64,000 nt of DNA from Escherichia phage phiE142: sequence record NC_055709.1; one strand, written 5' to 3'. The notes beneath the pieces were generated by a model. The model saw only the letters and a program-made list of their open reading frames with translations, ran no database searches and was not told the DNA's origin. Both the position numbers and the translations under genes were made by a program. Positions 3,783-55,556 of the stretch are shown here, one piece after another (positions within the stretch are counted from its first letter, which is position 1; the number at the start of each line of letters is the position of its first letter).

Positions 3783-4947
3783 CGAAATCTTCCATTTCGT
3801 CAAGGTCGTTTTCTATATCTGCTGCAGATGGAGCATCAGAAGTTTTAACCGGAACTTTAGTTGTTGCTTTGCAATTAATAAGGTCATTAACAGCGTCATC
3901 AACTTCTTTAATAGAAGAGATAGCACCTAGTTTATATTTAGTTTCAATTGCGTCACGAAAAGGTTTGTGTTTAAACAACGGACCCCAGAATTCTACACAA
4001 TCAGTAGCTTTAGCACGCCACGATTTCTCTTCACGAATCATTTCACCTGTTTCTTCGTCAAGGAATTCACGAGCATACCAACCAGCTTTAGGCTTAACAA
4101 CAAATCCAATTTCAGTTGCCATTTCTAACAAGCCACTGAATGGATCAATACCACCATCAAAATTAACTGTGATTGGGAAAGTAGATTTCTCTTTAACTGT
4201 ACGAGATTTTTCTGCTTTCAACGTGAAGTCATAACCGGTCAATTCTGTACCTTCTTTAACCTGACGTTTAGAGATAAAGAATACAGTGTTAGCAGAGTAA
4301 AGAATACCTGTACCACCACCCATAATCTCTTTAGGATATAGTCCGCCGATTTCCATTGCTGTATGGTTGATTGCAACACATGGAATATCTTTAATAGTCA
4401 GATACGGGGTCACAATACGGAAAAGAGATTTAAGTGCCTTAGCACGAGACATATCACCTACGACTTTCTCGTTCAACGCATCTTCGGTTTCTTTCTTAGA
4501 TGCAGTATTACCGATTGAATCGATAAAGATAATAACTTTATCACCGCGTTCAATTGCATCAAGCTGATTAGTCATATCAACTTTAAGTTGTTCGACAGAT
4601 TGAATCGGAGTATGAACTACACGGTCTAAATCAACACCCATTGAACGAAAATAAGATTCTGAAGCACCAAATTCTGAGTCATAGAACAAACAGATTGCAT
4701 CTTTATATTTCTTCATATAAGCTGCAACCATAGTTAGTCCAAACAATGTTTTAAAATGTTTAGAAGGTGCAGCAAAAATAGTCAAGCCTGATTGCAATCC
4801 TGCATTCAGAGCACCACCTAGTGCAATATTCAACATCGGAATACGAGTAGGGACTTCATCACGATTATTAAACAGCTTAGACTTAGTCAAGTCTGCAGTC
4901 ATTTTAGAAGTAGAAGCTTTAATCAGACGAGATTTTAAATCAGACAT
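3775..4947 (-). CDS. uvsX: UvsX RecA-like recombinase
   Basis: 390 aa RecA-fold sequence, T4 UvsX-like N-terminus; ATG verified. Confidence 0.95.
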   Translation of the reverse strand: MSDLKSRLIKASTSKMTADLTKSKLFNNRDEVPTRIPMLNIALGGALNAGLQSGLTIFAAPSKHFKTLFGLTMVAAYMKKYKDAICLFYDSEFGASESYFRSMGVDLDRVVHTPIQSVEQLKVDMTNQLDAIERGDKVIIFIDSIGNTASKKETEDALNEKVVGDMSRAKALKSLFRIVTPYLTIKDIPCVAINHTAMEIGGLYPKEIMGGGTGILYSANTVFFISKRQVKEGTELTGYDFTLKAEKSRTVKEKSTFPITVNFDGGIDPFSGLLEMATEIGFVVKPKAGWYAREFLDEETGEMIREEKSWRAKATDCVEFWGPLFKHKPFRDAIETKYKLGAISSIKEVDDAVNDLINCKATTKVPVKTSDAPSAADIENDLDEMEDFDE

Positions 4948-48810: not shown

Positions 48811-49767
48811 TTATTTGAAAGGTTTTACCATATGGAAATTTTGTTTGAAACGTTTGACGTAATCATCATGTCCTAAGCTTTTATACATACTTACTACTTT
48901 GCTGTAGTTTTCCCAGGCGTATTCACGAAACCAACCGGAGGTGATGCTTGTACAGACTTTTTCCAATGCCATCATAAAACTATCACGTGGATGGATTTTA
49001 AAGTCATTAGGAATCTGAGAACGTTCTAATGCTAGTACACATGATTCTTCGTATACACCGGCCAATTTGACCATTTCTGGTAATGATTCGAACTTCTCGC
49101 GTGAGGTCATGACTTCAGAACCATCTTTCATATAAAATGTATACGCTGGACGGTCCGTTAGTGCAATGGCTTCGTGAATAGTATCATGATCGTATGTGTA
49201 GATATCATCTTTAAAGAATGCGCTTTTAGAAGTGTCAAGAACTGGGTGAGCATAGTTCAAGGTTTCTTTCTGGCGTTTCAGCATAATTTCAGTAAGTTCA
49301 TCGTTCAGTTTAACACCTTTACCACGAAGATACTGAATATGGTTCATAGTCTTTAAAAAGAATGGATTATTTTTCTTGAAACGATGAGACATCTTAATTG
49401 CAAGACACATCTCAGGAGTTGCCCAGTAAAACCCGTTCAAACGGTCTTTAGTCAAATTTTTCTTGGCGTATTTTAAAAGGTCATAAGAAGACGTGAAATC
49501 TTCAGGAGTGAGTTCACCGACTAATTCACGGACATTAGTGATTGCCGGAACAATATATGCTTCAAAATGAGTTTCGCGTCCATTATGGAAGCATTTGAAA
49601 ACTTGGACATCAGGGTTATCTTGGTGAACATATACGCCCATCATTTGATTTTTGAATGCATTCCAAGAACCTTGGTCCGCAATAAAGTCCCAATCACTGT
49701 TTTTGATAGCGCTAGAATCAATAAGGCCGTGATAGTGAAGTGCACGAGAACCAATAACTAACATCAT
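48811..49767 (-). CDS. hypothetical 318-aa protein, possible nucleotidyltransferase fold
   Basis: N-terminal LVIGSRALHYHG...DWDFIAD (G-S...D-x-D) pattern; weak. Confidence 0.4.
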   Translation of the reverse strand: MMLVIGSRALHYHGLIDSSAIKNSDWDFIADQGSWNAFKNQMMGVYVHQDNPDVQVFKCFHNGRETHFEAYIVPAITNVRELVGELTPEDFTSSYDLLKYAKKNLTKDRLNGFYWATPEMCLAIKMSHRFKKNNPFFLKTMNHIQYLRGKGVKLNDELTEIMLKRQKETLNYAHPVLDTSKSAFFKDDIYTYDHDTIHEAIALTDRPAYTFYMKDGSEVMTSREKFESLPEMVKLAGVYEESCVLALERSQIPNDFKIHPRDSFMMALEKVCTSITSGWFREYAWENYSKVVSMYKSLGHDDYVKRFKQNFHMVKPFK

Positions 49768-49795
49768 AATATTTTCCTCTGATTAATTCATTAAC

Positions 49796-50047
49796 TTAAA
49801 TTTCACGACATGCGATATTATATTCATCCCAGAGGTCGTCATGTGAAGCCTCTACCAATGGAACGATTGTACCGTTTATGTCTTCATTATAAGGACAAAT
49901 TGTACAGTGCGCATCTTCGAATCGTATGCCTTTGTGTTCAGATTTTTTATAACGCATATCGAATATCTTTGCAAACTTTTCACGAGTAATAGTTTTAGCA
50001 ACTACTTCGGTTCCGATACTTTCGTAATAAATCATTGTAGACTCCAT
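49796..50047 (-). CDS. hypothetical protein, 83 aa
   Basis: track ORF, ATG verified. Confidence 0.35.
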   Translation of the reverse strand: MESTMIYYESIGTEVVAKTITREKFAKIFDMRYKKSEHKGIRFEDAHCTICPYNEDINGTIVPLVEASHDDLWDEYNIACREI

Positions 50048-50054
50048 TTAATTT

Positions 50055-50093
50055 GATAGGACTACTATAACATAGCCCTATCTTGTTGTAAAC
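50055..50093 (-). promoter_or_regulatory. PeSL cassette (imperfect AGGACT/AGGGCT arms)
   Basis: GTTTAC + TGTTATAGT. Confidence 0.5.
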
Positions 50094-50097
50094 TGTT

Positions 50098-50295
50098 TTA
50101 GCAAGAATAACTAGACGATACCCAGCCTTGAACAGTAATACTATTATTTGATAACGAGATTGCGTCCTGGAGATTAAGACCTGCGTTATCTTCAATCCAC
50201 AATGTAACTTCTTCACGCTCTTCGGTTGCAATCTGGAACAGGTTTTCTAGAGCAGCTACTGCGGTACGTACAGCACAATCTAATTCACGAGACAT
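50098..50295 (-). CDS. small protein, paralog family member (C-terminus ...GWVSSSYSC)
   Basis: tandem paralogs share C-terminal W-V-S/A-S-S-x-x-C tail. Confidence 0.45.
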   Translation of the reverse strand: MSRELDCAVRTAVAALENLFQIATEEREEVTLWIEDNAGLNLQDAISLSNNSITVQGWVSSSYSC

Positions 50296-50304
50296 ATGGT
50301 TTCC

Positions 50305-50577
50305 TTAGCAAGTGTGAGAAGATGCAACCCAACCGCCATCTTCAAGGCTCAAGTTGTAGTCGTATTGGTAAACATCGGCCCATTCAGCATAACCGTTTTT
50401 TGTACAACGTTCAAGATCGGCTTTAAGATGTCCGGGTGAATGATAGGTTCCACCCATACCATAAGCTGGATACAAGTCGAATGTTGTGTTTTGTTTATTA
50501 GCAATTTCTTTGGCAGCCTCAATAGCTGCATAGATTTTTGCTACGGCTTCAGCCAGTTCGGTTTGTTCTTTAGACAT
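50305..50577 (-). CDS. small protein, paralog family member (C-terminus ...GWVASSHTC)
   Basis: as above. Confidence 0.45.
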   Translation of the reverse strand: MSKEQTELAEAVAKIYAAIEAAKEIANKQNTTFDLYPAYGMGGTYHSPGHLKADLERCTKNGYAEWADVYQYDYNLSLEDGGWVASSHTC

Positions 50578-50586
50578 AATGATTCC

Positions 50587-50892
50587 TTAGCACAATGCAG
50601 AAGACGAAACCCAAGCACCTTCAGTAATAACATAACCATTACCTTCACGCTTAACATCACCACCATTATTTTCAATTTCATCTTTCATCCACTGGGATAC
50701 AATTTCACCCTTAGGATAATAAGTACGACCGCTACCATAATCACCTACAGAAAACGATACGGCGTATTGGTCTGCGATCTTTGTTGCTTCTTCTTCGATA
50801 CGTTCAGCTTGATTCAGAAGTTTATAAATTGCATCTGAAGCGGATTTGGCATCATTAAACTCTGGTACTTTAATTTCAATAATCTTACTCAT
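50587..50892 (-). CDS. small protein, paralog family member (C-terminus ...AWVSSSALC)
   Basis: as above. Confidence 0.45.
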   Translation of the reverse strand: MSKIIEIKVPEFNDAKSASDAIYKLLNQAERIEEEATKIADQYAVSFSVGDYGSGRTYYPKGEIVSQWMKDEIENNGGDVKREGNGYVITEGAWVSSSALC

Positions 50893-50990
50893 TTTCTACA
50901 TTCCTTAATAAAGTTTTCGATTGTTTCATTTTCACGTCTAGCTAGGAGTTCATTATAACTAATCATTTGAGAAGCGTAAACAGCATAAAT

Positions 50991-51383
50991 TCAGTTCAGG
51001 CTTTTGCATCTTATTTCCTTAACGAATTCCATAGCTTCTTCATATTCATACTTTTTAACAGCTTCATCATACTGAGCTTGGGCTTTTGCGCACTGAACTT
51101 TCCATTCTCTTAATCGGGCTCTGTGATGACGGCCTTGGTGCCAATATCCTACCCAATTAATAGGCATTAATAAAAACGGTACAATAAGTGGTGCGACGAA
51201 CATTAATGAAAACGCTGCATCAGACGATATAACTTTATTGGAATCTAAAATAGCTCCTATAATCATAAAGATTAAAAATGCTAAAGCTAAAATAGGACCA
51301 AATAGTACTTCATTTGGGATTAATTTACGCTTGTATTCATACGCCCAGGGCTTAATTGGCATGTATAGGGTTGGCTTTGACAT
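50991..51383 (-). CDS. membrane protein
   Basis: TM helices; start uncertain (track start is TTG). Confidence 0.35.
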   Translation of the reverse strand: MSKPTLYMPIKPWAYEYKRKLIPNEVLFGPILALAFLIFMIIGAILDSNKVISSDAAFSLMFVAPLIVPFLLMPINWVGYWHQGRHHRARLREWKVQCAKAQAQYDEAVKKYEYEEAMEFVKEIRCKSLN

Positions 51384-51948
51384 ATTCTCTACATTCCATA
51401 ATAAATTGCTCAAGGATTAAATTGTTAGTGAAATTAGGACTAACAACCATAGTTTCATAAAGCGCATCAATAGCACTTAAAGCATCAACTCTTTTAAGCA
51501 AAGGCTTGCCTTCATACATAGTTTCAGAATCGACGATTAACGTAAAGTAATATTTTTTATTATCGACTAGAACTTCTGTATCGATATAAAACATATTAGA
51601 CCTCAGAAGCTTATCTCTAAAACCATAATAATCTTCAGAGCGTTCGCTGATATATTCCAATTCAGTGTTTAAACAACAAACAGACCATGTAGGAGCAACG
51701 AAATCAGTGAATCTAATATCATGATCTGCAACTAGTTTAGCAATAGCTCCGATATCATGAATCATAATACCTGGGGCTAATAAAGATTTTCGGTTATTTG
51801 CATATTCAGTTGTCTCATAAGAAGACGACCAATACCATTTACGTCCAGTTGCAACATATCGTAATGAATCAACTAAAGACGTAGGTGGATTTACCTTATC
51901 TCGGAACTCTTCGAACATTGAGTCAATATCATTATTTTGGTTTCGCAT
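51352..51948 (-). CDS. hypothetical protein
   Basis: trimmed to ATG with AAGGAG SD. Confidence 0.4.
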   Translation of the reverse strand: MRNQNNDIDSMFEEFRDKVNPPTSLVDSLRYVATGRKWYWSSSYETTEYANNRKSLLAPGIMIHDIGAIAKLVADHDIRFTDFVAPTWSVCCLNTELEYISERSEDYYGFRDKLLRSNMFYIDTEVLVDNKKYYFTLIVDSETMYEGKPLLKRVDALSAIDALYETMVVSPNFTNNLILEQFIMECREYVKANPIHAN

Positions 51949-51997
51949 GTTAACTCCTTTATTATCCAAAAGGAGGACCGGAGTCCTCCGTATTATT

Positions 51998-52591
51998 TTA
52001 TTTCAAAGAGTTAATATATTCTTGTACATCAGCAGAAGTGGTTTCAACACCGGCTGGAGTGCCATTGAATGTTTCAACACGAGTCAGAGTGTCTTCGATA
52101 TCAACCTTAGTCAGTGCAGCAATTTCGATTACATCATCAGCCGTAGAGATACCAAGGGCATTGGCTGCTCGAGTTTCGCGGATGTATTCAAGTTTGATTG
52201 CCAGATTCTGACGAGCATCATCAAGTTCAACCACCTTACGAGCAATTTCAATTCGCATGGCGGCATACCCGTCAGCTTTTGTATTAAGTTGTTCGGCGGT
52301 TCGACGATACAGAAGACCAAGCTTAGCATGCATGGTAACATCTTGTCCTTCAGCCAGGAGCTTACGAATTTCACGTTCCTTAGAAGCGGCTTGCTTGTTC
52401 TTTTCATTAACAAGTTCGCGAATACGTTTTTCTTCATTAATAGATTTAATAGAAGCAGTTTTTAGTTCTTTGATTTGGGTAATCAACTTATCTGCAGCTG
52501 CGTTATACTGTTCTTCGACAGTCAGATTTTTAGCCATAGCAGTACCCAGTTTAGTGCGGATGAATTCAACAAGTTTCTTCAGTGTGTTCAT
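51998..52591 (-). CDS. coiled-coil protein (PspA-like architecture, uncertain)
   Basis: long heptad-like helical sequence; trimmed to ATG. Confidence 0.4.
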
Positions 52592-52662
52592 ATTATTACC
52601 TTTCAATTGGTGGTTTTATTATCCAACGAGAGCATTATACTCTGCTCTCAAGAGTTTGTAAA

Positions 52663-55244: not shown

Positions 55245-55295
55245 AAGCCTTGCGGCAGCCTTGTCGGGGTTCCACCTGCTAAGGCAAGTGTTTGT

Positions 55296-55386
55296 ACGAA
55301 ACGCCGGGATTCGAACCCGGTTATTAAGCAGTTGACGCTACTCAATATTTTTAAAGGCCATATCTCGACCATATCCGAACGTTCCG
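55296..55386 (-). other. tRNA-like fragment: T-arm plus acceptor 3' half without a canonical cloverleaf (possible tRNA remnant or stable-RNA 3' domain)
   Basis: minus-strand CCGGGTTCGAATCCCGG T-arm followed by 7-nt acceptor-like strand; no foldable D/anticodon arms. Confidence 0.3.
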
Positions 55387-55556
55387 TCAAAAACGCTACT
55401 CGGCTTACGGCAAAGATATTTCCTCGAATCGATAATTCTGTGCGCCGTTTCTGCTGTGATGTAAGGGGATATTAACGAATCATAAAGATTTATTAAGACC
55501 AGTCCTTACTCAGGGAACATCAGTCCGACGACTTGCCGGTAGCGACCCGGCTTCTC

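Follow-up and report, generated by a model that had tools for sequence, protein, structure and literature searches.

A strictly C-terminal cysteine tail on small acidic phage proteins is genetically linked to a predicted nucleotidyltransferase gene

The described systems closest to the locus analysed here are operons in which a nucleotidyltransferase (NTase) gene accompanies a gene for a small partner protein. Toxin genes of the MenT and AbiEii types are preceded by genes for short, unrelated antitoxins, such as the 68 amino acid MenA1 (PMC7450476, PMC11375011); MenT1 and MenT3 act on tRNA 3' ends (PMC10435456, PMC7450476), and MenT toxins are controlled at a G[ST] residue (PMC7450476, PMC10435456, PMC11375011). 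The RlaP proteins (PF10127) are RNA-ligase-associated phage NTases (PMC7824862, PMC12776372). The phage module described below resembles NTase-plus-small-partner operons (MenAT/AbiE and HEPN-MNT) but by sequence falls outside the families by which they are recognized. The NTases of HEPN-MNT (type VII) and GlnD/GlnE covalently nucleotidylylate a partner on a hydroxyl side chain; here too a pol-beta-fold NTase adjoins a protein partner, but their acceptor Tyr lies within a folded toxin or regulator, whereas the candidate acceptor in the phage proteins is a C-terminal Ser or Cys, and the partners are not homologous.

MenAT and AbiE are found on bacterial chromosomes, and the phage module in lytic phages. 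By sequence the phage enzyme lies outside DUF1814/AbiEii, it carries an extra ~170 amino acid DUF7275 region, and it has up to five upstream partners with a terminal-Cys tail, whereas no MenA or AbiEi antitoxin is known with such a tail. Like RlaP it is a phage pol-beta NTase sometimes encoded near RNA ligase or Pnk genes, but it belongs to other Pfam families (DUF7277/DUF7275), and tail-bearing partners have not been described for RlaP. The nucleotidyltransferases ANT(2''), LnuA, and LinB differ in having small-molecule substrates, no partner proteins, and no DUF7275 region. The phage-only distribution, the large extra enzyme domain, and the family of strictly C-terminal Cys tags are features not described for operons of this kind.

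The window analysed is a 64,000-nucleotide stretch from Escherichia phage phiE142 (NC_055709.1). It is 97-99% identical to Mosigvirus genomes (phiC120, p000v, and RB69 relatives) and by this similarity is a Mosigvirus (RB69/phiC120-like) of the T4 type. The genes of interest sit in an accessory region between the tRNA cluster and nudE (Nudix) that corresponds to T4 e.2-e.8. The features discussed are as follows.

50952-50980, minus strand: sigma-70/early-type promoter-like site (TTTACG-17-TATAAT) upstream of the array, from a consensus scan only
50587-50892, minus strand: paralogue A, a 101 amino acid ORF with tail AWVSSSALC; phrog_899 (E 1.3e-22), family HMM (E 5e-22)
50590-50613, minus strand: codons specifying the A tail (W V S S S A L C), followed by a TAA stop (50587-50589) that overlaps AAGGA, the Shine-Dalgarno (SD) motif for B
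50305-50577, minus strand: paralogue B, a 90 amino acid ORF with tail GWVASSHTC; phrog_899 (E 2.2e-18), family HMM (E 6e-22)
50308-50331, minus strand: codons specifying the B tail (W V A S S H T C), followed by a TAA stop (50305-50307) that overlaps AAGGA, the Shine-Dalgarno motif for C
50098-50295, minus strand: paralogue C, a 65 amino acid ORF with tail GWVSSSYSC; phrog_4882 (E 1.1e-36), family HMM (E 1.4e-4)
50101-50124, minus strand: codons specifying the C tail (W V S S S Y S C); GTA and AGT here are synonymous with the codons used in A and B
50064-50092, minus strand: second promoter-like site (TTTACA-17-TATAGT, including TG), located after the array and before the next gene, from a consensus scan only
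49796-50047, minus strand: 83 amino acid gene (ORF; phrog_3723) between the array and the NTase gene
48811-49767, minus strand: 318 amino acid predicted nucleotidyltransferase, equivalent of RB69ORF134c; Pfam DUF7277 and DUF7275, phrog_2141

The three adjacent minus-strand genes and their tails (in longer context ...EGAWVSSSALC, ...DGGWVASSHTC, and ...VQGWVSSSYSC) had been picked out in an earlier sequence-only reading of this DNA, which took them for a tandemly triplicated family. The ORFs and tails are indeed present, no other tail of this type occurs among the 740 stop-to-stop ORFs of at least 35 amino acids in the window, and the proposed paralogy is borne out: pairwise BLASTP gives E values of 7e-6 (A/B), 3e-4 (A/C), and 7e-4 (B/C), so the three proteins are homologous beyond the tail. 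The AlphaFold2 model of A (pLDDT 89) has a long N-terminal helix, a beta-hairpin motif (sFsvgDYGSGRTYYP), and a C-terminal sheet, followed by the tail; B has a corresponding hairpin motif (tFdlypAYGMGGTYH), and C is a minimal form without the YGxGxTYY hairpin. The genes are adjacent paralogues as that reading held, but they are only ~30% identical and each type has orthologues across several T4-like genera, and "tandemly triplicated" is a misleading label for them. The DNA repeat that it reported around each stop/SD junction is real but weak, with three 30-nucleotide copies at 67-70% identity and one 51-nucleotide pair at 73%, and the string it quoted, TCCTTAGCA...GAAGA.G.AACCCAA, is common only to the two internal junctions; in the C tail Val and Ser are encoded differently (GTA, AGT), and no Shine-Dalgarno sequence follows its stop codon. 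We attribute the similarity of the junctions to the conserved peptide together with the TAA-GGA stop/SD overlap and not to recent duplication, and the synonymous codon differences between the tails show selection at the level of the peptide. A recent tandem duplication or a DNA-level element is ruled out by the 67-73% identity of the repeats, the divergence of the proteins, the synonymous tail codons, and the orthologues of each paralogue in other genera. By these comparisons A, B, and C are ancient paralogues. Four orthologous paralogue types are kept in other T4-like genera, of which Mosigvirus has three; all homologues of A, B, and C are annotated "hypothetical."

There is some variation at this locus among close relatives. 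In RB69 the copy of A (RB69ORF139c) is truncated to 71 amino acids and ends ...VSQWYEK, so that the tail is lost, and in vB_Eco_mar005P1 the B copy is shortened to 75 amino acids, again with loss of the tail; the RB69 NTase gene (RB69ORF134c) is intact. Because of these truncations beside an intact RB69 NTase, single paralogue copies look dispensable. Many Mosigviruses have an extra ~360 bp gene ("putative transmembrane protein") directly upstream of A (for example at 4186-4545 of locus L001); it is absent from window positions 50893-50990 and from phiC120, which matches a two-piece alignment with ~240 extra bases. The 83 amino acid gene between the array and the NTase gene encodes no tail and is conserved in close T4-like relatives only. 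In T4 itself, the 50-100 kb interval that was covered (the syntenic e.2-e.8/tRNA region and its flanks) contains neither an NTase homologue nor a tail protein, and this absence from the T4 50-kb region may explain why the module has received little study. The T4 Tk.1 protein (62 amino acids; L036 10346-10534) resembles the hairpin motif weakly (LSFEISSEYGDAETYY; in a small search, HMM E ~1e-3) and has no Cys tail.

The extent of the family became visible through an exhaustive search in which an 11-sequence profile was compared with 1.84 billion cluster representatives (50% identity clusters); it matched 571 clusters at E ≤1e-3 and 60 at ≤1e-10, where word-indexed protein searches had found only 7 and 15 matches. 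Nearly all of the profile matches extend to the last residue of the protein, and 136 of the 146 best new representatives end in Cys. In those 136 the Trp at -7, the Ser at -4, and the terminal Cys are invariant, Ser is found at -3 in 133, position -5 is Ser, Ala, or Pro, and the Trp is mostly preceded by Gly. The motif W-x-[SAP]-S-S-x-x-C was found in 144 of the 146 representatives, and A, B, and C all carry it. The strictly terminal Cys after a Ser-rich stretch, which the sequence-only reading had singled out as unusual, is therefore the defining feature of the family, and instead of being confined to the three window proteins it is kept in hundreds of distant relatives. The representatives have a median length of 86 amino acids. 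Proteins of the family are strongly acidic (median pI 4.4, net charge ~-8), and most family members have a second motif, sF-x-f-(x)3-YGMGGTYY(P), the one that is deleted in C. The family was said not to be a recognizable one, and this also stands: A and B belong to phrog_899 and C to phrog_4882, both function-unassigned; Pfam, NCBIfam, and PADLOC contain no model for it; and it has no relative among solved structures. Nor does it show the beta-grasp fold ending in Gly-Gly by which ubiquitin-like and sulfur-carrier proteins are recognized. A literature search returned no papers for RB69ORF139c, for DUF7275/DUF7277/PF23940/PF23942, or for terminal cysteine combined with NTase and phage. The products of A, B, and C are predicted to be small, acidic, early-expressed phage proteins.

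The NTase gene begins at 49767, two genes beyond C (array end 50098) on the same minus strand, and it recurs beside the family elsewhere. A back-translated YGMGGTYY motif located 24 loci in IMG/VR (T4-like phages, 360-390-kb jumbo phages, and contigs of 26-95 kb), most of them with two or three tandem family members. A homologue of the 48811-49767 product, 38-74% identical, is encoded in 16 of the 24, most of the others ending before the gene would be reached, and it is the one other gene common to these loci. The reverse test gave the same answer. When 80 IMG/VR loci were retrieved with the 318 amino acid protein alone and the ends of their ORFs were scored for W.[SAPGTN]S[SGTN].{2,3}C, 72 had same-strand tail ORFs no more than 3 kb upstream, one to five copies each, in agreement with the earlier suggestion that copy number varies between phages. 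This upstream same-strand zone contained 160 of the 167 tail ORFs, the other seven coming from 11,740 ORFs outside it (Fisher's test, odds ratio 216, P 2e-148; the loci include close relatives, so these counts are not independent events, and the lineages are diverse), and two of the loci scored as negative have W+5 tail variants directly upstream.

The pairing is found in Stephanstirmvirinae phage phi1_175008 (five tail ORFs), Otagovirus psageK4 (five or six), Lazarusvirus KARL-1, the jumbo phage fENko-Kae01, and Menderavirus Ps15, in which the tail ORFs lie downstream of the NTase gene. The other local genes in these phage groups, the 360-kb jumbo phages, and the MAG contigs are unrelated, and tRNA and RNA-repair genes lie near the module in several of the phages. 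A survey of 185,579 species genomes, bacterial and archaeal, turned up the enzyme in only five MAG contigs, and all four of these that include upstream sequence carry tail ORFs; a bacterial origin is ruled out by these figures, and on this survey the tail-NTase module is phage-restricted. There are two exceptions to the pairing: the DSS3_VP1 enzyme (KVCT...GWFR motif) has no tail ORF within 4 kb, and no NTase is seen in the 13 kb of locus L020, which encodes two tail proteins. On the whole, the linkage of these genes across lineages suggests a previously undescribed tag-and-enzyme pair.

Within the NTase-linked set the tail is the part that stays constant. The terminal residue is Cys in 156 of 157 unique proteins, and the Trp-to-Cys spacing is W+7 in 142, W+8 in seven, and W+5 in six; by these counts the terminal position of the Cys matters more than its exact distance from the Trp. 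Some tail-bearing bodies are unconnected to the main family by the family HMM or BLAST, which indicates that the tail behaves as a portable module, and from the sequences compared it is the only element common to all members. Such unconnected ORFs, some of ~150 amino acids, are found at L005 9138-9287, L010 197-637, L026 3817-4272, and L020 360-677, with ends such as ...AVDWDSSSMYC, ...HWEPSSVNC, and ...WDSSWDDSSC.

Relatives of the 318 amino acid protein make up over 2,200 clusters and occur in 732 phage records, nearly always labelled hypothetical. Its N-terminal DUF7277 region is a pol-beta-type NTase core (G6 S7 ... D25 x D27), and its C-terminal DUF7275 region is helical, ~170 amino acids long, and contains invariant His, Asp, Glu, and Cys residues, with extremely conserved helical segments at GVYEESCVLALERSQIP and ALEKVCTSITSGWFREYAWEN. 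The closest structures to its AlphaFold2 model (pLDDT 90.5) are ANT(2'') (8.5), MenT3/TglT (8.5), MenT4 (7.8), TM1012 (7.6), and LnuA (7.0), and Foldseek agrees. It has the motifs I and II (hG[GS]...DxD) and the Lys-containing motif III helix of the MenT-like fold, and on this model it is a predicted pol-beta-superfamily NTase of the MenT/AbiEii/ANT structural class with an extra helical region. A Pfam search at E values up to 10 returned only DUF7275 and DUF7277 and no match to DUF1814/AbiEii or PF10127 (RlaP), PADLOC gave no match for the module, and by sequence the protein is not a member of the HD-domain group. Residues G6, S7, D25, D27, K125, H128, K139, H194, D195, H198, E240, E241, E248, and R249 are invariant even in remote homologues. 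Those remote homologues that are encoded by Streptomyces, Gordonia, and KVP40 phages have no tail partners nearby; they are flanked instead by a different, Tyr/Asp/Gly-rich protein of ~97-99 amino acids (L033 4594-4893, L034 4600-4893, L035 3360-3656), perhaps a partner family of another kind. All ten enzymes compared retain the catalytic core; R129, H174, P175, and Y190 are retained in the six with tail partners and differ in the four others. C272, S277, and R281 are likewise kept in six of six with tail partners and replaced in the remote homologues, DSS3_VP1 keeping all three. These residues mark a candidate docking surface, in a comparison of six sequences with four that is confounded by phylogeny.

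How might the tail and the enzyme be related? The sequence-only reading had offered modification, metal binding, and processing as possible meanings of the terminal Cys, and of its suggestions a recognition or modification signal is the best-supported candidate, given the tight genetic link to the NTase. We tentatively favor, at somewhat less than an even chance, a reading in which the small acidic proteins are acceptor substrates of the NTase and the tail is its tag. The paralogue bodies would be folded, each with its own role or target, and the tail, W-x-(S/A/P)-S-S-x-x-Cys-COOH, would be read by the NTase encoded downstream (48811-49767). It would dock in the enzyme, anchored by the free carboxylate and thiol of its final residue, and the hydroxyl of an invariant Ser (or the Cys thiol) would accept an NMP from an NTP, in chemistry like that of related folds, which carry out aminoglycoside O-nucleotidylylation and RNA 3'-OH extension; a single operon would in this way yield one enzyme and one to five tagged protein substrates. 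We infer here three things, physical contact, the tail as its contact element, and covalent nucleotidylylation. The linkage found in both search directions and across lineages and the enzyme residues that track tail partners count in favor of a tail-NTase partnership, and the tail as the sole common element of differing bodies counts in favor of its being a tag that the NTase reads. The invariance of the Ser and Cys residues, with almost no Thr or Ser substitutes, would fit chemistry better than mere binding. NTases that nucleotidylylate an adjacently encoded protein do exist, among them the MNT enzymes that AMPylate HEPN toxins, and GlnD and GlnE. Against substrates of this kind count the activity of MenT1 and MenT3, the closest structural relatives, on tRNA and not on proteins, and also the two exceptions, DSS3_VP1 without a tail ORF and L020 without an NTase.

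The same enzyme could instead be the one that is regulated. The small acidic proteins would then be antitoxin-like, restraining, timing, or redirecting an RNA (tRNA 3'-end) NTase of the MenT/AbiEii type that the phage uses on host or phage RNA, and the tail would be an unmodified pseudo-substrate plug or a docking peptide. The MenT1, MenT3, and MenT4 toxins are the best fold matches, the gene order in the window and in 72 of the 80 loci is that of MenT/AbiEii operons, the acidity of the proteins (median pI 4.4) is what would be expected of proteins that occupy an RNA groove as mimics of nucleic acid, S7, which is invariant, falls where the G[ST] motif of MenT has its phospho-acceptor (PMC11375011), and tRNA and RNA-repair genes lie nearby in several phages. 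One inhibitor should be enough, however, and the phages retain as many as five diverged paralogues, whose orthologues are conserved; the truncated copies in RB69 (RB69ORF139c) and mar005P1 beside an intact NTase would be unexpected if each copy neutralized a toxin; sequence searches match neither DUF1814/AbiEii nor any PADLOC model; and the invariance of Ser, Ser, and Cys exceeds what a docking peptide usually needs. We regard this explanation as the main alternative, somewhat less likely than the substrate reading.

Quite improbable, in our view, is a tail whose function is independent of the NTase, as an intermolecular metal site, a redox thiol, a means of oligomerization by disulfide, or an element inserted into a host enzyme. 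In the last case the terminal thiol and carboxylate would enter, for example, an enzyme that handles compounds with a C-terminal cysteine, and the proteins would be host-takeover or anti-defense inhibitors. They are small, acidic, early, paralogue-rich accessory products encoded in the hypervariable stretch that separates the tRNA cluster from nudE, a typical profile for such inhibitors; an invariant thiol at the chain end would suit metal ligation or attack on an electrophile; and L020 has its two tail proteins with no visible NTase. This explanation leaves unaccounted for the 160 of 167 tail ORFs that lie upstream of one enzyme gene in unrelated lineages and the enzyme residues that track tail partners. 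The tail Cys is moreover the only Cys in 90 of the 146 representatives, so that most members could hardly form a metal or disulfide site within one chain.

Very much less probable still is a signal for host machinery, that is, a C-terminal degron, a processing site, or a lipidation signal. The strictly C-terminal position might recall sorting and degradation signals; on the other hand, the hosts span many proteobacterial genera and the constant neighbor is the phage enzyme. To our knowledge the tail fits no known bacterial C-terminal signal, such as the ssrA-like LAA or the non-polar ends recognized by Tsp/Prc, and CaaX and CXC prenylation are eukaryotic and follow a different pattern.

A bolder form of the proposal, which we consider doubtful, would be that protein tagging is the purpose of a dedicated system found in many lineages of lytic phages, in which the NTase covalently modifies the tails of up to five small acidic effectors. 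The modification would be an O- or S-nucleotidylylation by a MenT-fold NTase with a His/Asp/Glu/Cys-rich domain. In its most extreme version the nucleotidylylated Ser would be eliminated and a thioether ring formed to the terminal Cys, giving a lanthionine-like cross-link on folded proteins. C-terminal S-x-x-C motifs occur in the AviCys lanthipeptides (epidermin type), and pearlin pathways use scaffold peptides with a C-terminal Cys. The phage proteins share with these a free C-terminal Cys, a Ser three residues before it (S(-3) in 133 of 136 and C(0) in 136 of 136, in keeping with the Ser/Thr of lanthipeptides), and several precursor genes beside one enzyme gene, but the carriers here are folded proteins of 50-150 amino acids, and the phages that encode them are lytic and infect Gram-negative bacteria. 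A fixed ring is hard to square with the W+8 and W+5 spacing variants, and the eight window ORFs spanning 48811-52606 have no Pfam or PHROG match to LanB/C/M/KC/L, LanD (HFCD), or MNIO.

If the link between tail and enzyme is functional, this would be a widespread undescribed module in T4-like, phi92-like, Otago-like, and jumbo phages, and it would provide the first functional context for DUF7275, DUF7277, phrog_899, and phrog_4882. It offers a testable case either of protein nucleotidylylation on a C-terminal tag or of multi-partner viral control of a MenT-type enzyme, and both readings bear on how phages manipulate translation or host defenses. A tagging system, if real, would be a new post-translational modification pathway together with a new class of phage effector, and a short tag read by one enzyme could become a biochemical tool.

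Several other features of the surrounding region may be mentioned. ARAGORN reports a tRNA gene of unusual length (94 nucleotides) on the minus strand at 55294-55387 with anticodon UUA ("tRNA-Stop," ochre-suppressor-like); it adjoins genes for tRNA-Arg(tct) and tRNA-Met(cat), and its equivalent in phage 55 is annotated as tRNA-Lys. Between the genes for proteins of 205 and 202 amino acids lies a perfect 7 bp GC-rich hairpin (GGAGGAC-CGGA-GTCCTCC, 51972-51989) that scores as a terminator on both strands. Finally, the TTG-start ORFs at 50991-51413 and 51352-51969 (minus strand) overlap by 62 nucleotides; their annotated homologues begin later (for example, 198 versus 205 amino acids), and the true starts are probably internal ATG codons.
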